DNA of 64,000 nucleotides from Azolla caroliniana (taxonomy: Eukaryota; Plantae; Polypodiophyta), in NCBI GenBank assembly GCA_043228905.1, contig JBHGNT010000014.1, positions 8,928,001 to 8,992,000 on the forward strand. The letters are read 5' to 3'. Within the stretch, counting starts at the first letter, position 1. Each line of letters starts with the position of its first letter. The notes below the pieces were generated by a model that searched no databases, was not told the origin of the DNA, and saw nothing but the letters and a program-made list of their open reading frames with translations. The position numbers and the translations under genes were made by a program. Positions 5,829-60,200 of this stretch are shown here, one piece after another.

Positions 5829-5885
5829 GCTTCCTCATTGATGAACTCTGTGTCGATGTCTTTGACGACATTTTTCGCATCTCCG

Positions 5886-6146
5886 TGCAACGGTGCTTCG
5901 ACTATCCTCAAGAATCCCTCTAGACCATGTTGCTTCAGCCATTTCTTAGCTGCTTTTGAGAGTACCATGCATTCCATGTCGTCATTGTCGTCGGTAGATT
6001 GTGGTAAGATTGTTGCATGCAACGGTGCTTCGACTATCCTCAAGAATCCCTCTAGACCGTGTTGCTTCAGCCATTTCTTAGTTGCTTCTGAGAGTACCAT
6101 GCATTCCATGTCGTCATCGTCGTCGGTAGATTATGGTAAGATTGTT
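5886..6146. repeat. 132-bp (44-codon) tandem duplication in accessory ORF
   Basis: TGCAACGGTGCTTCGACTATCC... at 5886 and 6018; peptide MECMVLS..KKWLKQHGLEGFLRIVEAPLH occurs twice. Confidence 0.9.
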
Positions 6147-11839: not shown

Positions 11840-11997
11840 CGCCAGAGTAGGTTCGTGGGGAGGAGACGGGTGGTTGCGGTGAGTTGGAGCTCTGTGATAG
11901 GATGGGGGAGAAGGTGAGGGGGAGGAGCGATGGGAGCGATGATAGCTAGAAGATGGGTTTCTGCTGTGTGCAGAAAATCTTCTGTTTTCTTCTTTTT

Positions 11998-12015
11998 GTC
12001 CCACCAAGCGTGCCA
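11998..12015 (-). promoter_or_regulatory. Primer binding site, tRNA-Arg type
   Basis: TGGCACGCTTGGTGGGAC 4 nt inside the 5' LTR; resembles the complement of the plant tRNA-Arg(UCU) 3' end (from recall). Confidence 0.8.
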
Positions 12016-15000
12016 AAAGTGTTGCCGATTAGGAACACGGTTCGCGGTCAGTCCTTCGACCTAGACCTCAAAGTGGGTGTGGAACAACGAATAGGTGTTT
12101 AAGTGTAATGCATAGGGGAAGAATCCCTGTAACCTATCAGTGCATAACGGAGACGAATACAACCGAATCCCTATCACAGGTTACACTTACGTACTTAAAC
12201 GCTTAGGTATTCGAGACACACACAGTGAATTAGCCATAGCTATACACAGGAAATCGGAGAAGATAGAATTCTATTATCAGGCGTTTCTTTACATTCCCAA
12301 AATTACACGCACCTCCATCAGAGGTTTTCTGCCCTTTATATACGCAGGGTCTATTTAGCCGTTCATGCTTCCTGCGTGAACCGTTACATGCATTATGTTC
12401 TTATATAATTTCTTATTCCTACGCTTTTGTCCATCGGTTACTATTCCGGCGGACAACAAATGTCAGGATGAACTTTCCAAATATTTCCATGATTATTCGT
12501 TGGAAGGTCGCCGGCACGGTCTTGAGCCCGAACATCATTACCACTGCGACGAAAACTCCCCATTCGGTGATGAATGCCGTCTTGTCTTGGTCGTCGGGGT
12601 GCATCCTTATTTGATTGTAACCGCTGAAACTGTCTAGAAAGTTATACACTTCATGACCGGCTACCGCGTCCAGGACTCCATCCGTAAATGGAAGTGGAAA
12701 GGCGTCAATCACTATTGCCGCATTGAGTTTTCGGTAGTCGACGCACACCTGGATCTTACCGTTCTTTTTCGGCACGACGACTATGGGGCTTAACCATGTA
12801 GCTTTTTTCATTGGTCGGATAAAACTAACTCGTAGCAACTTGTCAATTTCCTCTTTGACCTTGGCCACATAGTTGGGGTTCATTCGGTAACGCCGTTGTG
12901 CTACTGGTTTGGCATCCTTACTGAGATGTATCTGGTGTTGGTACAACTGAGGATCCAGCCCCCGCATGTCTTCATATGACCAGGCGAATACATCCCGGAA
13001 TTCCTTTAATAAAGTGATCATCGTCGTCTTGTTGTCCGGTGACATTTCCTTAGCAATATGAACCGGTCTTGCGTCGTCCCCAGTTCCTAAGTTCACTTCC
13101 TCTAACTAGGATGCTTTCATGTGTTGGGATACCGCCATCTCCCTCTCCAGGGCTTCCTGTGCTTGTCATAATTCTCTGATAGCTTCCCGATCCGGTTCCT
13201 CACTGGCATCATCTGATTGCGTTATATATGGTGACACTGCTTCTGCCACATCAATTTCAAATAGGGGTACAATTTTTGGGTTTCCTTCTAAGTATTGGTC
13301 GACCTCTTCGTCCGCAAGCCCCGTGAGCATGTTTACCCCTTCCACATATAGCGGTGTCAACCCCTTGCCGGTACTTGCTCGAGGGTGGGTAGGTACCCTT
13401 ACTTTAGTCTTTCCTCACCGGAAGGTAATCATGTTTTTCCACCAGTTTTGTTTGATATGCGTCATTTTTAGCCATGGGCGGCCCAGCAACAGCGGGTAAG
13501 CCCCTTGCGCATTGACCAGGAGAACCACCGCCGAAATGCGGAATGTGTGTCCTCCGATAGTTACGTCTAGACCCCGTATCAAACTTGTATCTGCCATCCG
13601 GAGCCAAAACTGCCAAGGCTCCTATTCTTGGATTCCCAAGGTATTACAAGTCCGTAGACTGATCAAGTTCACGCCCAATCCTCCGTCCACAATCGTCCCT
13701 GGTAGTTCTCATCCTTTGACGATGGCGGTGATTGTCGGACTGTTCATGTCCACCACTGTTGGCCCTTCTTCCGGATTTGAGAAGAACGCAGGAACCGGCA
13801 ACAGAATTGATGTGGTCATTCCAGATTTCAGCCCTTCCATAAACCGGGGCACTAGTTGTAATAACCGACCCAATGGCAGCGTAATCTGACATTCTTGTAA
13901 CGCTTGCCATGTTGGGTTTTTCGGCTGAATCGTGTTGGTGGCCTCTTTCGGCTTCTCCTTTTGTTGTTCAAGCTCAGCCACATTCTGCTCATTTTCCTTC
14001 TTCACCCACTCAGTGGCTTGCTTTCGGATTGCCTCCTGTGTTTCCCACTCCGTTGTTTTGCCTTTTGCCCTAGTGGTGACTTGTTGTATGTCGGCGACTT
14101 CTTCTACCAGCATATTTACGGCTGGTCTTTTCTCGTAGCTTTTAACCGGACATTGATTATTGTAATGTCCTTCTTGTCGGCAATAGTAGCAGTACGCTTT
14201 CCGGGTGTTGATGGATTTGGCGTTCACTCCGATACCTAGTTGAGGTCCTATTGGTGGTCGGTTGGGTACTTGGTGTGCCCTTGTCCGGCTGCCACTAGCG
14301 GTCCTCCTTTCCAACATTCCATTATTTATTGAAGCATTTTTTGTTCTGGTAACCCTGTCGGGACCGATTTTCATAATTGCCTTGATCCTCCCTCCGTTGG
14401 TTGTAATCGGGAGAGTGATCTCGGTTGTATCACTCATATCGTTCACCGTTGTAATCCCGGTAGCTATCCTGCCGGTCTCGGTCGTGAGCGTCCTTTCTGT
14501 CACTGTTCCAGATATCTTGTGACAGCCAGTAACGCTCATCTCGCTGCCAGCGTTCTTCTTCTTCCTCCCGGTTATTCCGAGGTTTGATTTGCCATACCGG
14601 TGCCGCTTGCCTGTTCAGCAAGTTATATTCGCATAGGTCTATTGTGTGTGCCCTGGAATGGCATAACATGCACTGTGTCTGCATGGTACATTCTATTGTT
14701 GAGTGCCCGGCATTGAGACAAGTCGTACATTGTATAGCTTGCCGAAAACGTAGGTCGTCTTCTGTTGGTAATGTACACTGGAGTGCCCCCATTGTTAGCC
14801 ACGAGCTTGTTTTCTCCATCTCCCTGACCCGTTCTATGACTTGGTCGATCATGCTGGTGCGGAAATCAATCACTGCGCACACTGTACGCAGGGGTTCCCA
14901 GAGTGTTGCTAGGAATATTGCTTTAACCTCTGCCTCTGGTGGTGCCCGATTGAGCTGACTGTGCATTCGCTGGAATCGGATCACGAATTGCTAAATGGTT

Positions 15001-16530
15001 TCCGTAGGTTCCTTCCGTATGGTGTAGAATAGGTTGACCATCTCCCATTGATCCACCTCCTTGTTGAAGAACTGTAAAAATCTGGTTTTTAAGTCCTTAA
15101 ATGTCGCGATGGTGCCGGGAGTGTGCGTCAAGCGCCATCGCGCGGCTGGTCCTTCCAAAGTCATGCCAAACTCTGCAATCTTTACACTACGCACACCGTA
15201 CACAAGGGTTCCTTGAGTGTGGCTAGGAATATTGCTTTAGCCTCTGCTTCCAGTGGTGCCCAATTTAGCTGGTTGTGCATTCACAGGAACCATCGCGCGG
15301 CTGGTCCTTCCAAGGTCATGCCAAACTCTGCAATCTTCGAACGTTCTGCTCGTCGGCGGTCAAACATTGCGATACATGGTTTGCTTCCCATGTTTGTAGA
15401 AATGCATAGACATGAGCTTCTGCATCCGGATCATCCCGGTACTTGGGATATTGGAACGGCATATCGTCGTCCGGTGTCGGAACACAAGCTGGTGGTGTTG
15501 GAGGTCTCCCCTCCTCTTATTTCGGTGTCAGAGGTCTTTCCACCACTTGCCAGTCTAGGGCTTCCAATTCTATTAAGTCTGGTTCTGGTGTCGGCAAGGT
15601 ATCCGACTACTCGTCCTCCGGTCCGTTTGGGGTGTCGTGGCTGCTACGGTAATTCGAATGGGCATTGCATTCGCCGTCTGAATCCGATTTGAAGGCCGAG
15701 AACGGTTCCGAATCGCCTCCCCTTGTTGCTAGTGCTTGCAGAATGGATTCCACATCCCGGAGATTGCTCAAGCTGCTTCCTTCGTCCGGTTGGGAATTCT
15801 GCTGCCCTCGGAGTGACTCCACAACCACTCGCCGGATTACTTTGGAAAATGAACAATCCGCACGGATCTCTTCAAATGCCTGCTGGAAAGCCTCTCGCTT
15901 TCGCAATCATTCGGCAAGTCTTCTCACTCGCTCCGTAACTGGGTCGTTTGTTGGTCTAGTCATCCATGCCCGTCGTTGTTCGCTGCATTTGTGCAGGAAT
16001 CGTGGTCGCCAAAAACTGTGTTATCGCTAGGGCTAGACAATGGCCTAACATAAGGTGTCCCTTTGAGACACTTCACCCAAGGGGTGTTGGGGTGAGATAA
16101 AGTTAGACCAACTATTAATGAAACCCTAATTGGTTACTAAGCGGCAAGATCATTAGTCACAATACACGCGTAGGATAAATTATACTTAGCCCAGAACGGT
16201 AATTAACAATGATTAAGATACAGAACAACAGCACTCTATTAATTATCCGCTACTAATTACAATCTAACCGGGCCCTTTTATAGGTCTCCGGCTCTAGGTA
16301 CAAACCAGTGCCAACCGGCAACCGGCTACGAACCGGTCCGGATCCAGATCGGCATACCGATTCCAGGTCCATCCGTTCGCATCTCAAAATCATAATAATT
16401 CTATAGTATATATATAATCAGCTCCTGGATATTAATTATCCCCTTCTTCCATTTTGGACTTTCCTTGCCGGCCGGTTAACAAATAATGGTGATGTGACCG
16501 GTTCTAATGTCTTTCCCTCCATGGGCTATA

Positions 16531-19500
16531 AAAGAGTGGGAATGGGTCAGAGTCCACGACTCCATCATGGACTTGGTGAAGCGGAAATGGCTTTCGACAG
16601 AGCTGGAGCCGGAGAAGCCGGTGGAGGTGCGAACGACGCACCTGGAAGATATGGCCCAGGAGGATGAGTTGGCGGAAAGCCACTATTCGAGGTTGCATTG
16701 GGCTAGAGCCACCACGGAGACCCCCGTTCGGATCGGAGACTTCAGGAGCCGGTGCTGGCGTTGGTAGACCACGGTTCGGAGATCAACCTGATCTCCATGG
16801 ACTTCTATAAGAAGGGTAAGTGGCCGATCAACACCAAGCACGGGTGGAAAATACAAGCGGCGACGCGCGCCACGAAGGAACTACACGGGACCTGCCCAAA
16901 TGTACAAGTGAAGATCGACAATGTCGAGATCGATCAGCACTTCTTCGTGCAGGAGACATCCTCATACCCGGTGATCCTCGGCGAACCGTACATCACGGTG
17001 GCACGCATGCAAATGAAGGTGCTAGATAATGGTTCGGCGTACGCCCAAGTGAAGAGCCAAGATGGGCGGCACTCCGTCCAATTTCTAACGGTGCGACCGA
17101 ACCACGAGCGCAACCGCGAAACCCTCAGCGGCGAAGACCGAGGGGATTTTTAGAGAGGGCTATCAAGGCGTGGGGCTGCGATAGTCCGGACACCCCGAAA
17201 AAACCCCACAATTGTAGCATAGGAAGGAAACCCTGTACTATAGAGAAGAAATTCTGGTTCTCCGACAACAGAGGTTGTACAATAACCGGCATTAGCGACC
17301 GGGAGAAGAAGCGGGCGTGCGGAGTCCTAGGCCCCGATGAAGTGATAGGCAGTGCCATGAAGGCGGTCTCTTTCAATGACACCTTGGGAGATCTGAGGAA
17401 CGTGCTTGAAAAAGGCCTCAGTGAAGACCGGATGATTCCGGTTAGTTCGAAACGGATGTACGAAGTCATCGCCGACTTCAGGAAAGGGGCCTTCCCGTGT
17501 TGATACAAGGTACAAGACTGTGGACCGGAAGGTAAGCCCAGTCACAACACCCTTGCCGGAGGGCAGCGAGTTATGGATGAAAGGGGTCACATCGGACCCA
17601 AGTTTACGAGATCCGGCCGGCATAGGACACCAGTTCACCGACATAACGCTACGGAAGCTCAAGGTCAGTGGGGGTGGCTTTCTAATGCCGGTGGGGGAGG
17701 AACGGTTTCGGAGAATGCTCAGGAGGCACGGGAAGGCCTTCGCATTCTCACTGGAGGAGATCGGGTGCGTAGACCCGACGGTCGTTGAAGCAATGGTTAT
17801 CTTCATTGTACCACATGTACCGTGGAATCTCAAGCCGATTCCAATACCCAAAGCTCACATCCCGAAGTTGATGGAGTTGTTGAAGCAGAAGGTGAAGATA
17901 GGCATCCTCGAGCCGTCGAGTGCCCCGTATTCAAATCAGTGGTTTACCGTGCCAAAGAAGAACGGCACGTTGCGCTTCATTCAGGACCTGCAGTCGATCA
18001 ACAAGGCGACCATTCGGAACGCTGGAATCGAACCGACCATTGACGAGTTCGGGGAGGCCTTCACCAAAAGGTCGATTTACTCGATCGGGGACCTGTACTC
18101 GGGGTATGACCAATTCCAACTAGATGAAGAGAGCATGGATATTATGACGATGCGGACTCCTCTCGGCCTGGTGCGGATGTGTACCCTTCTGCAAGGAGGG
18201 ACGAACGCGGTAGTGCACATGGTGAATGCGATGAATAAGGTGCTAAGAGACTATATCCCGGACATTACCATGCCCTTCTTGGACAACATCCTGATCAAGG
18301 GATGTCCGGTGGAAGATAGGGACAAAACGATTGAATCGGATGGGTGTCAGAAATTTGTTGCGGACCACATCGGCGACTGCGAGAAGGTGCTACAAAGGCT
18401 AGAGGGCGCGCGGCTCACCTTCTCTGGGAGAAATCGGCTTTAGGACAATCAGAAATCATGGTTATCGGACACCTGTGCTGGCCTTATGGTCGGAAACCGT
18501 CTCCAACCAAGGTAGAAGCCATCTCCACAATGAAGGGAGACTGCAAGTCGATTACGAAAGTCTGGAGGTTCTTGGGAGCTTGCGCGTTCCACCACATCTG
18601 GATCCCGCATTACGCCCACATCGCGGAGCCACTCTATGGGTTGTTGAAGAAAGGGCGCAAAATCGAGTGGAGCAGGGAGCATACGGAGTCGGTCCGAAAA
18701 ATGAAGGAAACACTTGCTGCGGCACTGCCGCTCAGGAAAGCGGTTTACAGAAAGGATGTTCCAATTTTTGTAACCGTAGACACGAGTCCGACCAGGATAG
18801 GATGGGTGATCAACCAGGAGGATGAGAATGGTATGAGGTTCCCCATCCAGTTCGGTGCGAAAGTACTCAGCGAATCGTTGTTCTATCCAATGACGTCTCA
18901 CAAAATTGGAACGGATCGAATAGATAATGATAAGTTTCAAGCAACATATTATAGATAAGGAAATCCTTGAATGGAGAGCGGTTCCATTTCCATCTACTTC
19001 TATGAACCAGAAGCCTGAAACGAGTGAATCGCTCCTGCAAGTCTTCTATTACAATGTTTTGATACAAGTGAATGGGAACAAATGTCTGTGGATATTGCGG
19101 ATGTATATGCATAAACTAAGTTTCTTTGACGTATTCGGAATGTCGCTCCTCATCCGGAGGGGATTTATTGCACTGCTTGACAGATGATTTAGTCATCGAT
19201 TTCGGATCATACCCACGATAGATAAAAAAATTCAGAATTTTTTTGTTTGAGAGATGTTTTTCGCGCTCCCTTCTCATACCGTAAGTGACATAAAGCCTAT
19301 GCACCAGTTCTTGCTTCGCCAACAAACAACGATGTGGGGAAGGAATATTAGGATCCGGCTGGAACAGAAGCATGGGATCCCAGACAAAGCGCCCCCCAAG
19401 AATCGAGTCGGTTCATCGGATCGATTCCATTGTGTTTCATATTGATTGGACGAGTCGGAGATTCCCAATTCCAAAAATTGCTCACGTAACGAGAGAGACA

Positions 19501-21205
19501 GCAAGGATATGCTTAGGTTAAACGCGAACTCTAGGGTATCATTTCGGCGGTCAAGGCCGACAGAGACTACCTGATCGGGATAGAGGTAATAATAGAGACG
19601 GACTGCCTACCGATCCTCGGTATGGTTTCCGGATGCACGACACCGGACCTAGCGATGCTCAGGTGGATCATGTACATTAAGTCCTTGAACCCAGAGATAC
19701 GACACATTTCCAGGAAGGACAATGCCATCCATGGCTGACATGCTTTTGAGAGCGAGGTTTGATGATGAGGGCGGCATGGTTTCGGAGGATGAGGAAGTCG
19801 GCGTGGACTTCTTCAAGACGGCTTACGTGACAACGAGAAAGGGGAGCACTCTGGCGCTTAACGAGTTCGACGAGGGCAAGTACGACGGGGAGTGGCTCCA
19901 GATCGCCGGGTTCCTAAAGACGATGACACCAGACGTGGCGTGGACAAAGGAAGAGGCTAACCGGATCCGGAAGAAAGCGTACCTATTCTTCCTACGGGAC
20001 AGAAGCATATGGAAGCACTCGAAGAAGCGAGACAGCATCCCACTCTAGGTAGTGGCGAGGAAGGAAGAGCAGGAGGCATTGCTGACGGTGTACCACGAGA
20101 GTCCTTGGGACGGACATCGCGAGACATGGGCCATGTTTGAGACGTTGAAGGAGAAGTATTGGTGGTCGGGACTATACCGAGACGTGCATCAGTTCGTGAC
20201 GACTTGTGAAAGTTGCCAGATGCACTCCATAATCCGACATCATGATGAGCTGCACCCGAGTTACCCGCCGACTGTCCACTTCAAGTGGATGGTGGATCTG
20301 GTGACGATGGCGATGGGAGTAGGGCAAATGTGGTACCTGGTGCTAGCACGAGAGGACCTGATGAATGAGGTGGAGGGTCGCGCATTACAGAACAAGACGA
20401 TCGCGGCCGTGTGCCGGTTCCTGATCGAGGAGGTGGTATGCCGGTACGAGTGCGTAGGGAAGATCATAGCTGACTTGGGAGAACTGGACGCACAAGAGGC
20501 CAAAGAGTTGTTTAATCAGTTGGGGGTTAAACTCTCACTCACCACGGTGTACAATCCGGAGGCGAACAGGAAGGTGGAGGCGGGCATGGGCCAATCGTCA
20601 AAGCGATAGTACGGGCATCTGGAGGCCAAGTCGAAAATTGGCCGCGGCTCCTACCTTATGCGTTGTGGGCAGACCGAACTGTGCGTAGTTAGGTAACCGG
20701 GTTCATGACAGCAAAGCTTATGTATGGCAGAAGCCGATCATGCTGATGGAGTGAATGATCTCCTCGTGGGCCGTGGTGGGCTAGAGAGACAACATGAGCC
20801 AGGAGGAGCTATTAGCGGCACGAATCCGACAGTCCGAGAGAAGACTGGAGGACGTGGACAAGCAACGGCAAAGCTACGTATGACGAGGGCAAGCAACAAG
20901 GGACGATTCGACTAGACTCACCGGGTGCGACCGAAGAAAATCGAGGAAGGTGATTGGGTTCTAGTCTACGACAGCAGCCTCGACAACTAGCACAAGGCGA
21001 TGCAAAAATTTGCGAGGAGGTGGTTCGGGCCTTACGCAGTGACGAGCGCCAACGACCACGGCACCTACCATCTCGCGGAGCTCGACGGAACAAGGATAGC
21101 CGTGGTGGTGGCCGGGAAGAGGATCAAGGCGTTCAAGAAGCGGCATGAGGATGAACCGGACCCAGAGAGCGTGGATGACAGTAACGACCGGATTGAGGAG
21201 GATGA
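16531..21205 (+). mobile_element. Ty3/gypsy pol (PR-RT-RH-INT), decayed, atypical/fungal-like motifs
   Basis: Protease LALVDHGSEINL; RT PYSNQWFTVPKKNGTLRFIQDLQ...DLYSGYDQ...GGTNAV...PFLDNILIKG; RH VTVDTSP; integrase HESPWDGH..CESCQ, KWMVDLV, RWFGPY. Confidence 0.9.
18874..19495 (-). other. ycf2: Nuclear plastid DNA insertion (NUPT): ycf2 3' fragment
   Basis: Interrupts gypsy RNaseH at KVLSE|RQQGYA. Minus-strand translation EQFLELGISDSSNQYETQWNRSDE...EDLQERFTRFRLLVHRSRW...NMLLETYHYLF resembles the Ycf2 C-terminus (FELLIHRQRW...NTLSESYQYLSNLF in seed plants). Confidence 0.75.
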
Positions 21206-21804
21206 CCAGAACGTGCGACAAACATTACGCCATCTCCTAACCAGAACGTGCGAGCAAAACCGAACATCATGGACATCTTGGAGGATGAATAGAGGGATGG
21301 GTCTGACGTACCATGGCACTGTCCCACAGGCATGCCAGGTGTTGTCTGCCAGAATTGTAACCGCCGGACAAAATGCATAAATATATTAGAAGCGTTAAGA
21401 AAAGAAATGTAACAGTTCACGCGAGAAGCGTGAACGGCTGAACACCCTGTGTATATAAAGGGCAGAAATCCTCTGTAAGAAGTAGCGTGTAATTTTTAAG
21501 CGGGAGGTTTTCTTTTCTAATAGAATCTTATCTTCTCTAATATTCGGTGTCCGTGCAACCCGTGTTGTCTTGTGTAATCTTTGTACTATGCGTAAGTGCA
21601 TCTTTGAAAGCGTAGGGTAAGAGTCAGTGTAGTAGCGCACTCAGGTTCTCGGTCGTAGCCATGAACCTTCACCCATAGGATACACGTTATTACGCAACCG
21701 ATGAAGTACGGCTCACGCCTCGTGTGACGGCCTACCTTGCCATGCAATCACCTTGAGGTCTATCTCGAAGGTTTGAAGATAGACAGTGTTCCATATCGGT
21801 AACA
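21206..21804 (+). mobile_element. 3' end and LTR (21340-21804) of an element related to 8611-12458, fused to the gypsy integrase end
   Basis: TGTTGTCTGCC...ATCGGTAACA aligns with the reverse complement of the 8611 LTR (TATATAAAGGGCAGAAA, TTGAGGTCTA). The sequence before it resembles the accessory ORF end. Confidence 0.8.
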
Positions 21805-26876: not shown

Positions 26877-28835
26877 TCATACAAGATGCCGCAACAGATG
26901 CAACAGCATCGCACTCCAAGTGTCGATCGCCCCTGGTAAGCACCAATGCAGACAGTCATTCTGCACCTTGGCATGCTTATCATGTGCAAACGGCTGGAAA
27001 TTCCTGTACGGACCCGGATGTGCATCGGGCCTCAATAATGAAGCATGTATAGTGTCGGCGATTTTGAGCTGGAAACTAAATTCTGACCTCTTGAGCAGCG
27101 TTTTACCAAACTCTTCAAGTTGAATCTTGTACATCTCTGCTGTCATACCTTCAAGAGCCACAGAGCTGCTGTCGAAGGGAAGAGTCCTGGTGCAGTTTCC
27201 ACCATTATCCCAACGCCCATTCTCAAAATGGTCAGGTGTAAATGTTCGGAAAAACACGATCCCCTTGTACTTGGATGAAATGAGATAGTCGAACACAGTC
27301 CTTAATGTGAATCTATATCCATAGTAGAACCCCACTTCTGAGACATTCAAGCTGAGGCTGTTGTGGCCACCGATCAACTTGTTTGCTTTGAAGTACACCG
27401 AGGTTTTTAAGAACCATTGCCCCGAAGATAGGACAATGTAATCATATTTGTGCAAGGAAGATGCCCAACTTTGGTCTACCTTATCCAAATGCAGTTTCTC
27501 TATGCCCTTTGCAAAGCCCTCAGCATCATCTTCAGTGCCTTGAACAAGGAACGGAGCCCATATAATGGCCAAAGTGAAATTATAGGATCGGAAATACCAC
27601 TGGATATTCTGATCTAGATCATCCCGGTACAGGTTTTCAGGAACCTCAACCTGTGCTTCATCACAGAGAGACATGCAGGAAGTTAAAAACACATACTGTT
27701 TAATTCATCTACCCAATAATCTGAACATCCAATAATTTACCACCACCACAGGGGGCATGTGTCAAGAGAACTTCTCTCAAAATCATGGATTCTTTCAGGC
27801 ATGAAAGTAGAAGTTGAATGGGAGGAGGAGGTTGGGTACCTGGGACAGTGAGCAGAGGAAAGATTGAAAATGGTTCCGAGCTATGGAGTCTCCAATAAAT
27901 GCCCAGGATTTCCCAGTGACGAGAGTTAAGTAGTGCTTGGCATCAAACAAAGGTAGATCGCAATCATTAGGCTTCCATCGCCAATACAAGTACTCGTGAT
28001 CCGGTCTTCCATTTTTCAGGCAATTTTGGTGCTCTTGGATGAAATGGCAGGTGGTATTTGTGTATCCCGGCCCAGCCGGGTTTGGGATCCAGTCTCCTCT
28101 CCAGATGTTGCACCCCCCTACAAAATGAATCCCCATATCATCTCTCAAACACCGTGAATGAGTTGGAATAATCAAGTAGGATTTAAGGTTAAAAAAGCAT
28201 CTTAAGTTAGCAAGCTGAGATTTGAACGAGAGTGAAGCTACTAAGCTTTGGCTGCCATCATCACTCTTATGGTCCACTTATCATACATATCCTCTCTCAC
28301 TCTCACTCAAAAGTAAATGGCCAAAATCAAGGCAAAGCTTCAGGTTCATTCAGCAAAAAACATCTAAAACTAACACAAAACGATGAGCACAACAGGTACC
28401 TACCTACCTACTGAGACCTCGTAAATTTTATATTATATAAGCTACTGAGTCCTAAGTAGTCTTTTGGTGAGCAAAGGACGGCTTACCCACATTGAAATCG
28501 ATAAGATTTGTAAGATCTGGAGGAGGAGGAGGAGGTAGATGTGGCGGTGGCGGTGGGTATTGAGGATCGGCAAGGCTTTGGCTTTGGCTTTGGCTTTGGA
28601 TGGAAGAAGCAGAAGTGGGCGTACTGGAGAAGAAGAGAATGCGAGCAAAGATGATGGGCAGGGCGAGCGCCAAGCAAGCAATGATGAGCAGCTTCTTTAG
28701 CTTCCAAGAAGAAGAAGAAGAAGATATTATGTTTGCAGCTTTGATAGGAGGAGAAGGAGGCGAGGATGCAACATCTAGACCACTTACAAGGGAATAGCCA
28801 CCACCGACGACGCCCACCATCTTCTTCAGCTCCAT
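26877..28835 (-). CDS. TRICHOME BIREFRINGENCE-LIKE polysaccharide O-acetyltransferase (TBL/DUF231), 3 exons: 28835-28487, 28117-27840, 27650-26877; 466 aa
   Basis: GT-AG introns with matching phases, 1401 nt open. N-terminal TM helix LLIIACLALALPIIF, Pro-rich stem, GCNIWRGDW/CLKNGRPD TBL domain, catalytic GDS (FIGDSIARN) and DxxH (NDCLHWCLPG). Motifs resemble the AXY4/TBL22-27 group. Confidence 0.93.
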
Positions 28836-32803: not shown

Positions 32804-33280
32804 GAACAAGAAGCTATTCAGCAAATGATGAAATTACATCCAACAGTAACTAAGTTACAAATGGTTGGTTTAAATACCAACTAACCTAGGGCAATTGCCC
32901 TTTCTACTATTTACAAAACTAGCCTAGTATGTCTAGTTGCTAGTGTGAAAGCCATTTCATTGGGGAAGTTGGGTTCGATTCTCAACACACCCCTTCGAAC
33001 ACAACTTCCGGTCGCTAGAGAGATTGTCTCGTTGTTTTGGCTCATTTAAGCTTTTTGGATTTATTAGGTCCATAGTTGGATGGTCAGTCGGCTTTGATTG
33101 TTTCGAATCCTTGTTTGATTTGTGTGGCTCATCTTCGACTCTCCTTGGCCAGCTTGTGTCCACTGATCAACTAATCGGCTACTATTCAACTACTGCATTG
33201 TACTCGTCGGTTGATGTACTCCCCCTTGTTATCTCCTTCTCGGGGATACACCTTCGATTACTCCCCCTTGAGTAATCAGG
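32657..33280 (-). mobile_element. 3' LTR (32657-32987) with (GA)n and 3' region of a copia element related to LTR 4445
   Basis: TGTAAAG...CTCAACA, purine tract GAAGGGGTG adjacent. Shares GGGCA(A/G)TTGCCCTAGG with LTR 4445-4776. Confidence 0.7.
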
Positions 33281-33289
33281 TCAAGGGAT

Positions 33290-36200
33290 TGTGGTTACGT
33301 AGGAGGGTACGATAGGGCCAAGTAGGCTGATTAGTTACACGATACTCGGCCACAACCGGTATTTTCCTTACGACTTAAGAATAGCCGAAATGACAGTACA
33401 AATTACAGAAACAGACACAGAGGTGACCCAATAAGTACAGTAACCATTCGGTTAAGTGCGTGCCCACTTAAGTGCACTATTCTATTAAGTGCGCTTTTTA
33501 TAGGCATAAAAATCCAGATCAAGAAAATTACATTGTTTCAGGACAAAATTACATCAAACAAAATTAGAACTAAGTTCCAAACTTTCAAAAACAAGAAAAT
33601 CATCATCAAAAATAGAAATTGTTCCATACATTATTTCTACCTCTCCAATCATTAGGAATGCCAAAGCACTAGGAAAATAAGTGTTATCATATTAGATGCA
33701 CAAGCAAAATTCCCTATTAGAAGGTTTATTTCGTATGTTGAGGATCCAACTAATGCACAACCAACAAAATGTTCTATTAGAAGGTTGATTTCTTATGTTC
33801 GAGGAGCTAATTTCATGTAAAAAGCCCGATCATCATGAAAAAAATCACGATTTCTTATGTTAGAGGAGCTAATTTCATGTAAAAAGCCTGATCATCATAA
33901 AAACAATTCATGATTTCTTATGTTAGAGTAGTCAATTTACAAATAAAATTGATAATTAAAATAACATTGACAAAGATTTACAAATCAATCTTTGAAGAGA
34001 ACCAACAATTTATTCAATTATTGCAATGTTTATTTTGAAATTTATGTTACAAATCAATGCTTTCATAGAAACCTTCACAAATGTTTATAAAAAGCTTCAC
34101 AAATTTCTATTACAAATCATTTTTTAATAGAAACCTCCATAAATGTTTGTAAAACCATTCATAAAATTCTGTTACAAATCATTTTTTAGAAGAAACCTTC
34201 ATAATGTTTTCCAAATATTGACTAATTTCTATTATAATTATACATATTTTCAGAAAACATACATGATACAAATTTCTACTATAATTATGCATATTTTCAG
34301 AAAACATGATTTATAAATAGTCGCAACAAATTTTGGCAGTGATGTATGCATCAACGGTGAACAACAACGTGGGGAGCAACATGGGAGTGATTAGAGTATC
34401 AACATTGTCGTGCCTTTCGGCTCCGGATCGTTGTGTGAGTTGGGTGGGAACCGCCGAGGTTTTGGACTAGGAGGAAGAGGAATACAACTTAAGGCTAGTT
34501 ATGAATAGTAGAAAGAGAAGTAAGATAGCAATCTCGTGAATCCCACGAGTTTAGTGTATTTAAAACAATATTTAGATTATAAGAGTAATTTAGATGGCAA
34601 AATTCGTGAATCCCACGAATATAGTAGATTGATCAATCCTTGTATATTAATCAACAACCTTATACATATTTCTCTCCTCCTTATATAAAGATGGAAGAGG
34701 CTAAGCATGGCTTCATGCTTTTTCACAAAAAGTGTCCATGCACACTAAATGTGTATGTGATGCTTTGTCATTTCCTAAGTATAGGGCTCATGCACGCTAG
34801 ATGTGCATGAGTCACTTATAATGTCACGTGTAAATAAAATATTCACACTCTAAAGAATACATGATTTTTACCTTTTAATAAAGGTATGTGTAAATAAAGG
34901 TCTTATACGTATTAAATCTATATGTATAATATTAAAGATAAGTTATTACAATGATAAAGTTGAGGTTTATCTGCGTGGAGGTGTAGGGTTTGAATCTTGC
35001 CCTATGCACGTGGTAAATATTTTGATATATTATTTATTTATTTATATGTATCTAAAATCGGATATATTATTTTATGGTTTTCACGTAGTGTGTGGAATAC
35101 ACTACGACAACGTGGGTATGATCATAATCATGGAGTGATTAGAGTGGATGTAGGTTCGGTGTTTTCTGAAAATGTACAGAGAGAAACATTTTTGGGGGAA
35201 AAAAATTTCATGTAAAAAGGCCTAAGTGCGCGGCTCGGTTAAGTGTGCACTTTGGCACTTAACCGAATGGTTAATGTATGTATATTGATTACGAAATAAA
35301 ATTGATTACAAGGCAACACATGGCGATTATACTCGTCACACTCTCTTATATTATAACATATGCATATATATATTCACCCTTTTTCTTCTATTATTCCATG
35401 ATTTATATAGCCTATTGTGCTTCAAGAACTTTCCCTAATTAACGGCCTTTATTCTCGGTTGCATATATTTTGTTCTACCTTCCTCTGCTATGCGTGCTTG
35501 GCCGATTCCCTTTTTACCTACTTGACCTACTCATCTCTTTAGATTTGTTTCACACCTCATGCCCTTTTGTCCCACGGATAACACATGGCACGCCCTGGGA
35601 CAGTGCCTTGCACGTCGAACTCAAAAAGCACTAAATTTTTTTCGAAATCGTGAAATTGAAAAGAGCCGAAAATTGATATTGTACAGTTAAGTCTTCTTCC
35701 AAAATTGATGTGATGCCCTCCGGTTCTCCGACTACCCCAGTTTGAGATCGGCCTTCAAATTGGCCCTTTGCTCCGTGGTCTCTTGGGATTTCGTTCGTTG
35801 TGCCAACTCGGAGTCGCCTCCTCCTGGGTTAGCTCGGCCGTAAAATCGAGTTGTTGGTCTGTAATTTCCGTCGTGGCGCCCGTAGCCCCTTTCTCTTGCT
35901 TTGTCTCTTTGGTTTGTTCAACCACTTGTTCCCTTTCCAAGCTTAGGCGTGGCCCCTCTTCTTCTTTTGGCTCTTGGGTTGTTACCTCGGTCGTCAAGGC
36001 CCTTGTTGTGGCTTCTGCTTCTTTCTTAACTCGAAGGTGTTCGTGTTTATAGCCTTTGGTTTCAATCATGAGCAATAGTTGATCATCATTAAATTCCTCG
36101 AGGAGGTTTCCAATGGCCATGGTGTGTGTTCGGGCCAAAGCTTGTAATTCCTCAGTGTGGTCTTCACGGAGGATCTTAATGTTATTCTCGTCCATCTTGT

Positions 36201-36660
36201 AAAAACCACGACCCTCTTTTTTCCGATTTTCGGCGTCTGCTCACAAGATTTGCAATTCGGCTGCTTGAGCCGACCATTCATTCCATCCTTGAGCTAGTGC
36301 CGCTTCGACTTTTTGATTCAGCTTTAGCTGGTGCTTCGCCACTGGTGCCTTCACTCGGGTTTCGCCCATTTCATATTTGGCCCGGAGAGTGTTCATTTCC
36401 TCTTTAGCCGTCACAGCACCCCGTTCGAGCTTGGCTTTGAGGATCTCGCACGATACGGTAACTCCGACGATCTTTTCTTCCATTTCCTTCATATGTAAGT
36501 CATAGTGTCAGAGGAGTTGATTTGAATTATCGGCTAACTCCTGCAGATATCGGTCACGTTGATGTTTGAGTTCTAGTATCTAGGAAATTTGCAATTGGTG
36601 GAGGGACTCCAACAATGTATATTTCTCCTGCTCAACTTCTTTTAACAATTGATCATGCAC
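33290..36660 (-). mobile_element. 3' end of an element of the 8611 group: accessory-ORF C-terminus and 3' LTR (inner end 35583), LTR split by a mariner-type element
   Basis: ORF pieces 35755-36492 (GRGFYKMDENNIKILREDHTEELQALA) match the 8611 ORF (KLNEESIAAVREDLTQDYCALA). LTR end CTTTTGTCCCACGGATAACA. Left boundary approximate. Confidence 0.7.
33438..35276. mobile_element. Non-autonomous Tc1/mariner (pogo-like) DNA transposon with TA TSD
   Basis: TA|CAGTAACCATTCGGTTAAGTGC ... GCACTTAACCGAATGGTTAATG|TA. Subterminal TAAGTGC repeats, AT-rich interior with ~60-bp tandem repeats, no transposase ORF. Confidence 0.88.
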
Positions 36661-37342: not shown

Positions 37343-40300
37343 TATTATCCGTAGGAGTTGTACGGGGCGTTATAAGGGTAAAACACGTTAAAGGGGTTGT
37401 TCGGTATGTGTAATGTATATGAGTGTGAGGATGAGTGAGTATGTGTGAGCAAATGCACAATTATGTGCATGTGACAAGAATGTAACGGTCTCTTTTTGTA
37501 ATGGACATATTATTTACCGTTACATTATGTATTATATAACCCCTTATGGGGCATGTAATGAGAGATAGTTTTTTCCCCTCTCATTTTGGTGTCATTTCCT
37601 ATTTTTCTCTCTCTCTAGCTCTCTAGCTCTCTCCCTATCGTATATCGTAACCCCCTTGAATGGCTTCACCCCCCACCCCAACAACACTTTTGGCACACCG
37701 GGTGGGTGGAACGACCCCCTTAAGAAGAAATCTCTCTCCCTCTCCCTCTCCATCACTAATCTAATCTCTCCCTCTCCATCACTAATCTAATCTGTCTATC
37801 CCTCTCTCCCTCTCTCCCTCTCTGCTTGTCTCTGTGTCTCTGTGATAGAGAGTGTGCTTTGTGCATGGATTTTGAGTGTGAGAGTCAACCCGTGATGGAG
37901 ATCTCCACGTTATTCCCTTCAGAGGAAGTCTATCTCTCACTCTCCCCTTCTGTGTTTCTGCGTCTACATGTGTGTGTATCTTCAGCCTTCTTCTCTTTGT
38001 TGCTGGTGCCGTGCTGCCATCCCTCTTTCGGTCAAGTAGAAGGCCTAAAGACGGGAGAATAGAGCATGTAGAGTTACATAAGGAGGTTCCGTGTCTTATG
38101 CTCTTTCGGTTCTTCTTGGTTGCGTCTTGCCTCTGCTGAGGTCTTGTCTTCTTGCCCTAATCCACTTGCAGCCTCGTCAGTTGCAGAGGCCCGATTCGAT
38201 GGCGACAGAAGATGCACGTATGACCGCTCTCCATCATTGTTGCTCCTGACCATCAAGGAGTGCATCACATCCAGTAGATGCACTGCCTTGTCTCTGTCAA
38301 TCTCCCTGTTGTAGGCGAACGTCTGCACCTTGGACCTATAGAAGGGAAGCATCCAGTAGGCGAGAGCCACCAGGTAGAGATCAAGCAACTCCCGTGCCTC
38401 CTCCTTAGTCTCACAGACTGCATCGATCCTCACCCCTACCAGATGAAAGCGAGTGGGATCTGGTTCTTGATGAGGAGGATGTCTTCCATGATGGCTTTGA
38501 CGACATGGATGAGATGTCTGCGGATCAACCGAAATCAAATACAGAGAACAAAACAAGAGTGACATTACAACCAACTATCTAGAGGTGGATGATTGTGCAG
38601 TTGTCTGTTATGTCTTTAACAAGCAACATGATTCAACGTCACCAAGATCTAATAGACATGGTCCCTTCTACTTCTTCTTCTGTGAGCTCAGCTATGGCGG
38701 AGTCAGACATTGTAGGCATTCATGTTGATCATTTGCAAGTCGATCTGCCTATAACCGTAGTTGTGTTGCCAACAGTTGCAGTGATGGACATCACTATCAA
38801 TCACGAATTAAATCTGCTTGAGAGCAAACAACATGAGAATAATTTCTGTGCTTCTAATACCTCAGCTTCCCTGGCAAAAGTTATAGCAGGTGTCGATTCA
38901 TGCCTGAATTTCAGTGCTCCATCAGAGATAACGATGATAACGGAGGAGGCAGGTGACATAGGAAAAGCTTCTCCTTTCTTAGCAAGATCTGTGTTGCGAA
39001 GGAGCCTAGCAGAGTGTCTGCATGTAGCAGCCGATGAGGAATGGTCAGCTCTGGAAGGTGTGGCAAGAGTAAACTCGTTGCTGAATCTTCCTAGGTTTCT
39101 CTAGAGAAGACGATCGGAGATAATTAGGAGGGCCAATTGAATCGAGCAAGTCTACAGAATTGAAGAAGAAGATAGTTTCCTGAAGAGGAACAAGAAGCAA
39201 CAACAGTAGAAGACGATGGCTATGACTGATGGCGGCAAAGCCGGAGAGACATTCTGGTAGCCGGACTGAGACATCCCCAACAGAGTTGGCCGCCAAATCG
39301 CAGCTGCCAAGCTTGCCGAAGTCTGGCAAATAGCCAAAAGGACATAGATGGCCTCTGAAGCTGAGGCCAAAAGAATAGATGATGCAAAATTGGTTGTTGA
39401 GGCTGAAAAGAGAAGATGGCCGAGACCTGCCGTCGAGAGTATGGCCGAGATGCGCGGCCGAGAATACGGCCGAGACACATGAACGAGAAGATGGTCGAGA
39501 TGTGTGGTCGAGACACGTGGTTGAGAGCACAAACGAGAAGCGCGGATGAGAGTACGACCGAGATGGGCGGTCGAGACTCGTGGCCTCAGAGTACGACCAA
39601 GTGATGGCCGAAAAACGACGGCCGAGACGCGCGGCGAAGAGCATAGTCGAGACGCGAGGCCAAGAATATGGCCGAGAGTACGGCAAGACGCGCGACCGAC
39701 ATCACAGCCGAGATGCACGGCCCAAAATACGGCTGAGACGCGTGGCCGAGATGCGCAGCCCAAAATATGACTGAGACGTGCGGCCAAGAATATGGCCGAG
39801 AGTACGGCAAGACGCGCGACCAACATCACAGCCGAGATGCGCGGCCCAGAATACGGCTGAGACGCATGGCCGAGATGCACAGCCCAAAATATGACTGAGA
39901 CGTGCGGCCAAGAATACGGCCAAATCGCGCGATCGAGACGAGTGGCTGAGAGTACGGCCAAGACATGGCCGAGAAACCGAGACACAGCCGAATGATTGCC
40001 ACGAAATTGTCCAGAAACGACCAAGCGACGGTTCGGTTGCCATCGGACCGACACGATAGACAGACAAAGACAACCTATGGACTGCAACAGCCGGCCGAGA
40101 GAGCCAAACAGCCAGCGGACATAGTTGGCTGGTGGAGACGACTACCGGATAGAAGGAGAGAGGAGGCCAAGAGAAGACAAACAAGAAGAAACGAAGAGGA
40201 GGAAGAAGAAGCAGAAGAAGAGAAGAATGCACAAGAAGAAAAGAAAGAAGAAAAAGAGGATACAGAAGGAAACGAAGAAAGAGAAGAGGGGTATGAAGAG

Positions 40301-41088
40301 AAAATTTCAAAAGCTCAAGGGCATGAGATGAAATTTCAAAAGCTCAAAGGCATGACTTGAGATTTCAAAAATTGGAGGGTAGAATGTCGAATTTCAAAAA
40401 CACAAGGACCGAAAATAAAATTTCAGAAAATTTGAGGGCAAAACTTTTAGAGACCAAGGGTACAAAATACAAAGCTCAATTCACATGACGAAACCAAAAA
40501 ATACACATACATGTAACATAATCATGAAAGGCCCATGCCGCAATGGAGGAGCCAATTGGTGTGTGATCCAATTGAGCAACATGCTAACTGAATGAAAAGG
40601 TTTGAGTCAAGCAATGCTCCGATCGAAGTTATCGATCGTACAACTATGATCCGGTCGACGGATTTCCGACCGTTGAGACGACCGATGGAGTTCTGATCGT
40701 TAATAGTTGCCATGGCGAGTGGGTTCACCGTGCGATGCACTGTCCCACAAGCGTGCCATGTGTTACCCGTAGGAGTTGTACGGGGCGATATAAGGGTAAA
40801 ACACGTTAAAGGGGTTGTTCGGTATGTGTAATGTATATGAGTGTGAGGATGAGTATGTGTGAGCACATGCAGAATTATGTGCATGTGACAAGAATGTAAC
40901 GGTCTCTTTTTGTAACAAACATATTATTTACCATTACATTATGTATTATATAAACCCCTTATGGGGCATGTAATGAGACATAGTTTTTTCCCCTCTCATT
41001 TTGATGTCATTTCCTATTTGTCTCTCTCTAGCTCTCTCCCTATCGTAACCCCCTTGGGAGAATGGCTTCACCCCCCACCCCAACAACA
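37343..41088 (+). mobile_element. Complete non-autonomous LTR element with TSD AGCAC and PBS-like sites inside both LTRs
   Basis: LTRs 37343-37686 and 40761-41088. AGCAC at 37338-37342 and 41089-41093. TGGCACACCGGGTGGG at 37691 and GTCCCACAAGCGTGCCA at 40742-40758. No gag/pol motifs. Confidence 0.93.
39410..39990. repeat. GC-rich minisatellite (GGCCGAGA-based subunits, 124-bp higher-order period)
   Basis: CAAGAATA(T/C)GGCC recurs at 39661, 39785 and 39909; many GGCCGAGA(C/T)G subunits. Confidence 0.85.
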
Positions 41089-55573: not shown

Positions 55574-57258
55574 AAAACCCTGAATGGAAAAAACCATGGG
55601 AATTCGCAAACTTCAAACTAGATCACTATAGCAGGAAGGAATACAAGATGAGTCTCTAAGGCAACAACCTTGAGATCCTCTTCGTTTGATCATGGTTACA
55701 AAAGAGTTTCTTGACACTCACACCCTCTCTTACTCCTACTCACTAGTTACACACACAATGATACACACTACAACTTTGTCTACATCAACAACCACAACTA
55801 TTCAACAATTACAATCATATAATACATTATAACTACTTGCCCTAACTATATTTATACTCATATACATATATGACTATTTACAAAGATAGCCCAATCGAAT
55901 TCGGTTATTGGCCGAATTGATTATCCATCAGTTATCAGTCAACCGATTTTTTGTTGTTGTAGGTTTAGGGTTAATGATGTAATGATCATGATGACGACAG
56001 AAATGGTGATGGCATTGAGAATCATTGTGGGGTTCTTGGCGAGATTGATAAACATTGTGGGGTGGGGGGTGGTGCCTAGAATGGCTCCACCCCCCTCCCA
56101 AGGGGATTCAATGTGAGAGAGGGAGAGAGAAGAGAAAAGGTGTCAAAGAGAGAACATATTCATTATTCATTCATTCCCCATAAGGGGGTTAAATAGTTAC
56201 ACTGAGGTTAGATACATAGGCATGCAAGCCCCCCTAACCATGCACACTAACCACTCACTCACACCTCTTCTTATTTGTCCACATGCACACACGTGTGCAT
56301 GTGTTCACATACGTATCTACTCAGACTCACAATTACACTTAATAATTGTATACATTACACATACATACAACAACATTAAGTTTCTTCGCCCTCACTCAAC
56401 TCTCCATATATCTCGTACGGTAACACATTGTGGCATGCACGTGGGACAATGCCTTGCATGTTGATCCCACATGCCTTCATCATCTCTAATCGACTGGAAA
56501 CTTCATCGGCCTTCTCATTGATCGACTCCCTCAATTGGAACGCTTGACTCGAACATCTCCTTCGGTTAGCGAATCTTCCTCGACATGAACATCTTGTTCT
56601 GTCGACACATGAACTTTGGTATCATCCTTCGGGTCTTTAAAAAATGTTGTGTATGTGTATTATTTCGCTCATTGATTTTGTGAATTGTTGTGACTCGATC
56701 TCGTCCAATTCGTCCATGTTGAGTTTTTAAAATTATGTATTATACCCTCAAGTTTTCTAAAATATTGACAATACCCTTAGGTTTTTGAAAATTTTATAAT
56801 GTACACTCGAGTTTTTGAAATTCTGGCGGTTACCCTGAAATTTTTAAAATTTCACCGAATGCCCATGTGTTCTCTTTATTTTTTCATTTCATTTTGTTAT
56901 AATTTTAGGATTGCTTTTAGGTCATTTTTCTTCCCTTTTTGTGTTTGTCTCCTTCTTTGCTTCTTCCTCTTTTTCTGTTTTCTCTCTTGTCGTTTTGTGC
57001 ATCTTCATTGTCTTCTTCGAGTCACTTTCTTCCTTCTTCCTTATTGTTTTTCTCTTCTTCTTCTTCTTGTTTTTCTTTGTTCTTCTTCTGCTACTGCTTC
57101 TCCTTCCTCTTCCTCTTTTTCTTCTTCTTGTTTTTCTATGTTCTTCTTGTTCTTCTTCTAGTGTTGCTTCTCCTTCTTCTTCTCCTTCTCCTTCTCCTTC
57201 TTCTTCTCCTTCTTCTTCTCCTTCTTCTTCTGTTTTTCTCTATTCTTCTTCTACTGCT

Positions 57259-60200
57259 AACACGTTTACGTTTACAAGTGGAAGGATCACGCATTCCACT
57301 TATACATTCCTTTTATAATCTTGTGATTTTAGGCGATTTTCAGAAACTTGATACACCAGTATTACATGTTTTAAATAGCATGTAAAATTTGTTAATTTTT
57401 TGAGATTTAACAAGTTTCAAAATGATAATATTTAAAATTGAATAGTTTTTCAATAAATGCTTAAATGTTGATGGTTTGAAAATATGAAATGTAGTTAACC
57501 TAAAGAAAATCACAATGGTTAACTTAAGACACAAGTTAAGATTAATGGTTTCACCATCTTGAGAAGATGTAGGTTCCATAAGTGGAAGTTACATGTATTG
57601 TTAGACTTCAAATTGTTTTAAGTATAAGAGGTAACATTGTAATCCTTAATGCCATCATCTATAAATTTAGTGCTCATCAACATCCATAAATTCACAACTC
57701 AAGAAATGTATACAATATTTATAAACAATTTTGATAAATCCATAACTCCTAAACTGTAGATGATATTCATAAATTGTCAAAACTGCAAAACTTAGATGTA
57801 AACATTAATATATCAATTTGAACATATCACATACTTATCAAGGTATCCACAATGCTCTCCTCTTCTTCATTTTGAGAGTTCCCCTACAAAATTTGTGAAG
57901 TAAATGGCATTTGCAAGGTTCAATTACCATCAACACAATTATTAATGGTTTTTTGTTAATCAAGGAAGCACATGTTCACCGTAAGGTATCTTGTTGTGCA
58001 ACATAATTCTATACAACATCGATATGCATCTTTTACTCTTGTCAAAATAGATATTTTAATTCAATTCGAGTTCATGTAAACCCTAAACCTCTTTTATTTG
58101 AAAAAAAAGAAAGATTTCTAAACATGAACTCCATACATTTTATTGAGTTGATGTAAAAAACAGAGTTTTCGTCACAATTCCATACAATGTATCAAATTTA
58201 TGTTCAAAGTTTTTTTTCCCGAATTAAAAAAATAAAATAAAATAAAATAATAAATCGAACTTGACTTGATGAAAAACCAGATTTTTCACCACAATTCAGT
58301 ACAATGTACCTAGTTTATGTTTAAAGTAATTTTTTCTGATTTTTTTTGGAAAAAAAAAAACTTTAAACAGGAATTCGATACATTGTATTGACTTGTGATG
58401 AAAACTCTGGTTTTTTCATCATTTGAACTTTCTTTTTTTAAAAATAACCAAAAGGACCCAAAATAAAAAGAAAAAAACCAAGATTGTTTATTTTAAAACC
58501 CCCCAAAAAAACCTTTAAACATGAACTCGATACATTGTATCGAATTCATGTGAAAAAGTCAGCTTTTTGACACGAACTCGATACAATGTATCGAGTTGGT
58601 CTTGAAAAATTTGTTTTTCAACACGAACTCGATACATTGTATTGAGTTCGTGTCGAAAAGCTGATATTTCAACATGAATTTGATACGGCGTATCGAGTTC
58701 ATGTCAAAAACTGAGTTTTTCAATATGAACTCGATACGGCGTATCGAGTTCGCGTTGAAAACTCTGTTTTTAAACACGAACTTGATACGGCGTATCGAGT
58801 TTGTGTTTAAAAACAGAGTTTTCAACGCGAACTCGATACAATGTATCGAGTTCATGTTTAAAGTTTTTTTTATTTTTTCTATCTATTTTGGGTCCTATTT
58901 TTTTTTAGTTGTTTTTGAAGTGATGAAAAAACTAGAGTTTTTATCACATGTCGATACAATGTATCGAATTCATGTTTAAAGTTTTTTTTTTCCAAAAAAC
59001 AAATTAAAAATAAATAAATAAAATATCAAAAAATTTGAATTTTTTTTGAAAAAATTACTTTAAACATGAACTCTATACATTGTATTGAATTGTGCTGAAA
59101 AACTGGTTTTTTCATCAAGTCAAGCTCAATTGTTTTACTTTTTTAAATCCGAGAAATTTTTTTTGAACATGATTTTGATACATTGTATGTAAGTATGATC
59201 AAAACTTTGTTTTTTACATCAACACGATATAATGTATGAAGTTCATGTTTAGAAATCATCTTTTTATTGAAATAAAAGAGGTTTAGGGTTTACATGAACT
59301 CGAATTGTACTAAAATCTCTATTTTTACAAGAGAAAAAGATGCATATCGATACTGCAAAGAAGTATGTTGCACAACAAAACAACTTATGGTGAACATGTG
59401 CTTCATTGATTAACAAAAAACCATTAAGAATTGTGTTGATGGTAATTGAACCTTGCAAATGCCATTTACGTGGTGTATAAAATATTCTCGTGGTTCTTAA
59501 TCACCGCGTCAAGCACTTAATGTTGATCTTCATACTTTGGTTCATCTACAACAGAGAAACATTTATGTGGAACTAAGGATGACAACACAAGCATAACTTA
59601 AGTGACAAGGAAACTTGCAAGAACTCAAGGTGGGGATGTTAATAGCTACACATGTAGATGACCATTAGCTAGGGCACCAATTCTGCATTGGTAAAGTTTT
59701 GGACGCGGTGATGGATTAAACATTTGTAATACATCTATTATTGACATTAGTGAGGTGGATATCATTGTGTATGACTTTACACTAACAAAAGTTGGATGTT
59801 TAAGGATGAGAACGATAGACATAATAAAAAAGATATTACCAAGACTAGAAGATAGCTCAAATTGAAGGTGAACAAGATTTAGTGCACACAATTTGGAGAC
59901 ACCATTTAGTGAAGACAATGATTTGATTGGTACATTTGAAAATGAGGAGGAAGAGTCACAATTGTATATTAGCTATAGTAGTGATTCTCAAGAAAGGAAT
60001 GATGATAGTGAGGCAAATAACTCTTAAATGTATTTTTTGTGCAACGATATGTAAGAAATTTAGCCAATATTTTATCGAATGAAATAAAAAAGTCAATTGT
60101 TTTCAAATCTTTCGCTTATGATTTTGTTAGGATCTAAAATACTACTAGTTGTAATTTCTTCTTAAAAATACAAAATTTCGTATTTGGCCAAAATTTGGCA

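Follow-up and report, generated by a model that had tools for sequence, protein, structure and literature searches.

The window, that is, the whole 64,000-nt stretch of the Azolla caroliniana contig analysed here, is repeat-rich land-plant DNA made up of nested copia, chromovirus and non-chromovirus fragments and one PC-esterase gene. This host gene (26877-28277, minus strand) encodes PMR5N and PC-Esterase domains and is surrounded by repeats. ARAGORN found no tRNA over the window. An AT-rich foldback element at 57900-59469 has terminal inverted arms of 211 nt and an array of 51-nt palindromic repeats. We found the following LTR elements and element parts around the locus of interest:

4771-16481, minus strand: non-chromovirus gag-pol element hosting E1; 5' LTR at 16019-16481, 3' end outside the window
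8611-12458, minus strand: E1, complete non-autonomous element with the accessory ORF only; target site duplication (TSD) AATGT
21296-21804, plus strand: E4, tRNA-arm site (21296-21337) and 3' LTR (21340-21804)
37343-41088, plus strand: E3, complete non-autonomous element; TSD AGCAC; primer binding site (PBS) from 37691 after CTTT
56426-56471, minus strand: E5, tRNA-arm site (56431-56471) with a 5-nt spacer

Another copy, E2, contains the site under study. Its 3' LTR, the site itself and the end of its accessory ORF are what remains of it:

33227-35583, minus strand: 3' LTR, TGTT...AACA, split by a DNA transposon (33443-35271)
35584-35585, minus strand: spacer of 2 nt separating CCA from the TG that opens the 3' LTR
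35586-35601, minus strand: copy of a tRNA 3' end (3' side of the T-stem, acceptor strand and CCA) in element sense, 16 nt
35602-35614, minus strand: 13-nt insert, a hairpin of 4-5 bp with a 3-nt loop, which splits the tRNA match in the T-loop
35615-35625, minus strand: 5' half of the T-arm of the tRNA, matching at 9 of 11 nt; stem decayed in this copy
35755-36657, minus strand: C-terminal portion of the accessory ORF, containing in-frame stops; matches P0121 710-946, E 1e-32

The preliminary description of this DNA had placed an LTR end, a short spacer, a PBS-like sequence and AGTGCC at 35584-35607, and this layout was confirmed: the LTR ends at 35583 and is followed by a 2-nt spacer, by TGGCACGCCCTGGGAC at 35586-35601 and then by AGTGCC. 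On the plus strand the 16 nt look like an inverted PBS, 2 nt shorter than an 18-nt PBS, and they lie at an edit distance of 2-3 from phage tRNA-Arg(TCT) ends. The LTR boundaries of the sister elements were fixed via their 5-bp TSDs. The DNA transposon inserted into the E2 LTR has 17-nt TIRs and TA flanks, and inside it there is a solo LTR (~34406-35109) that is 80-85% like the ends of locus L026. On its other side, the accessory ORF of E2 meets a fragment of a copia RT near 36716.

As had been anticipated, the ORF at 35755-36657 (minus strand) proved at the protein level to be the C-terminus of the family encoded at 9067-11839 (minus strand), with 43% over 82 aa and E 3.6e-22; both match P0121. 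We recovered 696 relatives of this accessory protein at E<=0.001. Compared with Pfam, it gave no family above the cut-off and no match to Transposase_32 or ATHILA ORF-1, and its leads in the Atlas, clusters of these same two names at 0.83-0.85, are weak.

A homologue is also present in the gag-pol element hosting E1, which contains gag, RT, RH and IN (stop at 6444-6446), followed by an accessory ORF on the same strand. The homologue starts ~340 nt past the integrase stop and lies in two parts (~6100-5822 and 5235-4771), related to P0121 with E 1e-23 and 1e-5, respectively. An LTR end with a PBS was sought in 6140-6450, between integrase and accessory ORF, and was not found. The element's own PBS, of the TGGCGACCAC type, begins at 16011 after a spacer of 5-7 nt. 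Its full-length relatives P0128 and P0130 have the order gag-PR-RT-RH-IN, and the nearest named relatives of the RTs in the window are from a fern and a liverwort (54-58%), which makes a non-seed plant the likely source. The accessory ORF has been rearranged in this element, with a tandem 132-nt duplication at 5886-6146 that repeats its start and an LTR-like insert at ~5480-5830 that splits it.

The site lies just before the 3' LTR, on the sense side of the accessory ORF, as the preliminary description had argued. This orientation is supported by the ORF on the gag-pol strand, by contig ends in sequencing run X1, by the metagenome locus L062 and by the polarity of TATA-like boxes. In run X1, seven contigs join the start of the gag-pol LTR to the inverted site, with a 2-nt spacer and TGGCAC...GGGAC as the majority sequence; the agreement of 0.69 is as expected for a mixture with random flanks. 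For the same junction, the rows listed for X4 and X5 are without the motif and X6 gave none, that is, one run of four was positive. Locus L062 has the accessory ORF end, the site and an LTR that resembles that of the gag-pol element at 71% over 143 nt. Of 9 LTR segments, 6 have TATA-like boxes reading in the proposed sense and 0 have them in the opposite sense. A contig from a run guessed to be RNA matched E1 in three pieces and was set aside; it ends inside the LTR and shows neither strand nor ends.

Further sites of the same class are located at 56431-56447 (+), 40742-40758 (-) and 21321-21337 (-), with a remnant at 9052-9057. The pattern ACA-N2-5-TGGCAYGC-N1-4-TGGGAC occurs five times in the window and 0 times in each of 100 dinucleotide shuffles, a result that shows recurrence only, the pattern having been drawn from the sites themselves.

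The LTRs of E1 are 439 nt long and identical at 414 of 439 positions, and its PBS (11998-12015, minus strand) follows a CTTT spacer. Of its 3' site only TGGCAC (9052-9057) is kept, and the deletion of ~30 bp that had been proposed to account for this is visible as 31 nt missing behind 9057 relative to the sister copy E4 (21290-21339). Other copies of the E1 family carry the full site at that position, in 14 contigs of X1 and in 5 and 35 contigs of X5 among the rows listed, where no row from X4 or X14 shows this continuation.

Element E3 has its tRNA-arm site at 40718-40758, a 2-nt spacer and its 3' LTR from 40761, and its 5' LTR begins with TA. The interior of this copy (37700-40720) gave no match to the accessory protein. 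It contains low-complexity frames and tandem repeats that in part resemble 56724-57061, and both end sites are kept. The LTR of E4 is 71% like that of E1 over ~217 nt, and the segment preceding it at 21340 appears to encode the accessory ORF end. This copy is joined directly to an unrelated pol (~16530-21240), the whole (16530-21340) being a chimera or deletion product; a 14-nt direct repeat lies near the junction (at ~21206 and ~21240). The pol was considered as the owner of the LTR at 21340-21804 and rejected, its relatives having a TGGTGAACCC-type PBS, a G-rich polypurine tract (PPT) and the site in 0 of 42 loci.

The fourth copy announced at 56431-56447, here E5, is present, but its spacer is of 5 nt. 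PBSs behind a CTTT spacer, as described for the class of true PBSs, were found at 12015 and 37691, whereas the PBS of the gag-pol element, with its spacer of 5-7 nt, has another sequence. All three PBSs (12015, 37691 and 16011) start with TGG 4-7 nt after the LTR.

The term inverted PBS understated the site, which is a longer tRNA 3' arm standing at the position of the PPT. It spans ~40 nt and matches the last 29 nt of tRNA-Arg(UCU) in four copies in the window and one in the metagenome locus. In element sense it reads GTGGG-TTCGA, an insert of 13-14 nt, GTCCCAC...GCGTG-CCA, 2 nt and the LTR. The A(G/A)TGC noticed earlier behind the 3' site is there, but it is one arm of a hairpin, behind which the tRNA match resumes. 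The final 18 nt of the five copies are at an edit distance of 2-3 from tRNA-Arg(TCT), and the 11 nt preceding the insert match it at 11, 9, 9, 8 and 7 of 11 positions; the copies are related to one another, so these are not independent tests, and the reference tRNAs, called tRNA-Arg(TCT) by ARAGORN, come from phage contigs and not from the host. Every copy lacks 1-2 nt relative to the tRNA. A pattern derived from L062 with a free gap found one viral-contig locus, again tRNA-Arg(TCT) according to ARAGORN. With a looser pattern, 14 loci were matched, called by ARAGORN as tRNA-Arg(TCT) (2), Ile (7), Cys (2) or no tRNA (3), so Arg is not the sole tRNA type with this T-arm motif.

An 18-nt inverted PBS cannot supply the resumed T-arm half of the site. 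Because the match includes CCA and exceeds the 18 nt that a PBS covers, the site looks, judging from its sequence, captured from a mature tRNA rather than inverted from a PBS. The insert falls immediately after the TTCGA of the T-loop, whose final A we take to be position 58, m1A58. It can be drawn as a hairpin of 4-5 bp with 93% of the stem cells paired, compared with 34-53% when the structure is slid along, the structure having been derived from the same sequences. The E5 hairpin has an A-U pair where other copies have G-C; a single compensatory change occurs over the five sequences, no more than shuffles give (104/500). Folding z-scores are strong in two of the five copies (-3.3 and -2.1) and weak in three (-0.3 to -0.9), E2 included.

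A polypurine tract before the 3' LTR, usual in 'most' Ty3/gypsy elements, is lacking in all five intact sites, where 7-9 of the final 15 nt preceding the LTR are purines, the longest run of them being 2-4 nt. As controls we used the gypsy family fetched with the pol at ~16530-21240, for which 42 of 80 loci had sequence after pol. With tracts picked by a G-rich pattern, 35 of these 42 had 10-13 purines and runs of 5-12, and the other 7 gave no match. The tRNA-arm site was present in 0 of the 42; a loose match in locus L024 was dismissed as spurious. In this control family (L001-L070, with the TGGTGAACCC-type PBS), a conserved hairpin GCACAT...ATGTGC with paired variants stands directly 5' of the G-rich PPT, and it is present in most of the 35 loci listed.

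The 3' site keeps one tRNA type independently of the element's own PBS. The gag-pol family combines a TGGCGACCAC PBS with a TGGCACGCCC-type 3' site, the PBS of E3, a third variant, differs from its 3' site, and in locus L073 an E3/E5-like LTR is followed by a TGGCGACCA-type PBS. In the E1 family, PBS and 3' site share one tRNA type and are for the most part complementary.

Based on these data, we favour, among five readings, one in which these PPT-less non-chromovirus Ty3/gypsy elements bind a host tRNA at the split tRNA-Arg(UCU) 3' arm for priming the plus strand; this may well be the case, and it is ranked above priming by the element's own tRNA-like RNA, another role of the arm, pairing with the PBS and a reversed orientation, in that order. 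RNase H would clear the RNA and the minus-strand DNA would expose the site, in which 16-17 nt could pair with the tRNA 3' end and 11 nt with the 5' half of the T-arm. The short hairpin would be looped out between the two annealed parts, right after the T-loop A, and the CCA end of the tRNA would start DNA synthesis 2 nt before the TG of the LTR. Plus-strand synthesis starting there would define the linear cDNA's left end in the manner of a PPT, and the PBS at the 5' LTR would prime the minus strand as usual, with a different tRNA in some families.

Several features are in favour of priming by a host tRNA. The 2-nt spacer is shared by E2, E3, E4, the E1 remnant and L062 (5 nt in E5), a C opens the spacer at either LTR end, so that the termini are symmetrical (AACA-C), and the insert right after the TTCGA of the T-loop fits an annealing in two parts. 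Against it, the gap of 1-2 nt relative to the tRNA implies a bulged primer, the copied T-stem is able to self-fold in competition with the tRNA, most of the site is gone from E1, and the link of the gag-pol element to the site consists of the seven contigs from one of four runs and of L062.

The primer of the plus strand could instead be the element's own tRNA-like RNA, spared by RNase H and cut after CCA, an explanation that we consider possible though rather unlikely. Position and spacer fit it equally, the RNA can fold as a T-stem with the hairpin (its pairing being as given above) and ends in CCA, no second packaged tRNA is needed and the 1-2 nt gap would be tolerated. However, the folded RNA would compete with pairing to the DNA template, and an RNA of mixed sequence should be cut by RNase H. 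The LTRs beside the sites are mostly unalignable, and a self-encoded primer leaves the likeness to tRNA-Arg in five copies with such LTRs unexplained, as it does the position of the insert at the T-loop A. We give somewhat less credit to a different role of the tRNA arm, as a packaging or dimer signal, an RT-loading site or a decoy against tRNA-fragment silencing, with an atypical RNA remnant or an upstream purine run as the primer. E1 and E4 do have a purine-rich run ~35-60 nt upstream, and the hairpin kept just 5' of the PPT by the unrelated pol family indicates that a structure at this place can serve otherwise. Nevertheless, the purine run falls where the ORF encodes its acidic end, and it was not seen in E2, E3, E5 and L062, a start so far upstream would leave an extension of ~40 nt for the integrase, and the CCA stops exactly 2 nt from the LTR.

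The remaining two explanations are far less probable. Pairing of the 3' site with the element's own PBS, by which the RNA would be circularised or the minus strand self-primed, agrees with the complementarity in the E1 family, but it is disfavoured because the 3' site does not follow the element's own PBS, as the gag-pol family, E3 and L073 demonstrate, and it would leave the plus strand without a primer; we regard it as very improbable. Hardly any weight is left for the reverse orientation, already named in the preliminary description as the case to be excluded, in which the 2-nt-spacer site would be the true PBS and the accessory ORF antisense. Plant LTR elements with extra ORFs in reverse are known, for example some OTA elements (PMC6317226), and the 2-nt site fits tRNA-Arg(UCU) better than some of the PBSs do. 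Yet the accessory ORF shares the gag-pol strand, in the gag-pol family the site and the gag-proximal PBS flank opposite LTR ends, and the TATA polarity is 6 versus 0.

With TG...CA LTR pairs and 5-bp TSDs, E1 and E3 conform to Ty3/gypsy elements (E2 retains the 3' LTR only). No second RNase H (the aRH of Tat elements, that is, TatI-III, Ogre and Retand) was detected at E<=0.1 in P0128, P0130 and the window ORFs scanned. The elements are Ty3/gypsy non-chromoviruses without aRH and with a forward extra ORF at the 3' end, and by their organisation they are Athila-like in plan. They share with Athila and other OTA elements (PMC6317226; 10.64898/2026.03.20.713144) the lack of a chromodomain, the extra ORF, the 5-bp TSD, a non-Met PBS after an AT-rich spacer of 3-6 nt and non-autonomous deletion derivatives. 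In Brassicaceae Athila, on the other hand, the PPT junction is conserved and the PBS is of the Asn/Asp type, according to the ATHILAfinder preprint (10.64898/2026.03.20.713144). Phygy and Selgy have a short interior filled by the polyprotein, whereas here a long extra ORF follows the integrase.

In canonical Ty3/gypsy elements and retroviruses, an element-encoded PPT primes the plus strand, as described in PMC5371799. These elements resemble Ty3, as presented there, in their TG...CA LTRs, the PBS after the 5' LTR, the gag-PR-RT-RH-IN order and the short TSD, and differ from it in that the PPT position holds a tRNA-sense copy with no purine tract. The pairing of tRNA 3' end and T-arm in two segments recalls the bipartite PBS of Ty1 and Ty3, that of Ty1 being divided by a small loop, but those segments complement the tRNA on the genomic RNA, for minus-strand priming (PMC5371799). 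Drosophila Gypsy, too, has a further tRNA site close to the 3' end of its genome, and its two sites bind the tRNA on RNA (PMC1635307). Here, the element RNA has the tRNA's own sense, and therefore only the minus-strand DNA could bind the tRNA. Helenus TRIMs are also LTR elements with tRNA-derived sequence; according to PMC10886601 the tRNA part forms a Pol III promoter within each of the two LTRs, PBS and PPT are kept and the elements are <1 kb, unlike the single internal 3' arm with CCA outside the LTR, without PPT, in elements of 3.7-3.8 kb. A tRNA arm replacing the PPT was not found described in the literature searched, with most subscription journals outside its coverage.

Taken together, the elements quite possibly represent a land-plant LTR lineage without PPT in which host tRNAs prime both strands, sometimes two different ones, with a bipartite inverted site derived from mature tRNA-Arg. 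Plus-strand priming from a PPT is regarded as the general rule in LTR retrotransposons and retroviruses. If our reading is true, a high-copy lineage would be a natural exception to it, with a Ty3/gypsy RT able to begin both strands from tRNA ends, and this would be a new way of copying such elements, shared by several related families of plant elements. It is also plausible that PBS-based strand calls by LTR annotators are reversed, notably for copies without pol, as the preliminary description had suspected. The elements carry a PBS-like site at each end and lack a PPT, so the strand calls for such copies may be wrong; in E3 the 3' site is nearer to the tRNA-Arg(UCU) end than the real PBS (edit distance 2 against 5, with phage tRNAs), which makes a reversal conceivable.

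Searches elsewhere were also carried out. The site pattern was run on viral contigs (45 and 0 matches) and on prokaryote genomes (16), with no such element among the matches listed, and protein scans of viral contigs found nothing. Rfam gave nothing on the L062 site, and the site motif had no match in five Neumann supplement files in text form, a set that possibly leaves out the.fasta file. Thirteen viral contigs (L083, L084, L085, L088, L092, L098, L103, L106, L112, L113, L115, L120 and L122) have in common a stretch with a PBS-like 18-mer, which is probably unrelated to the elements; it is conserved and intergenic-looking, with no long repeats nearby.
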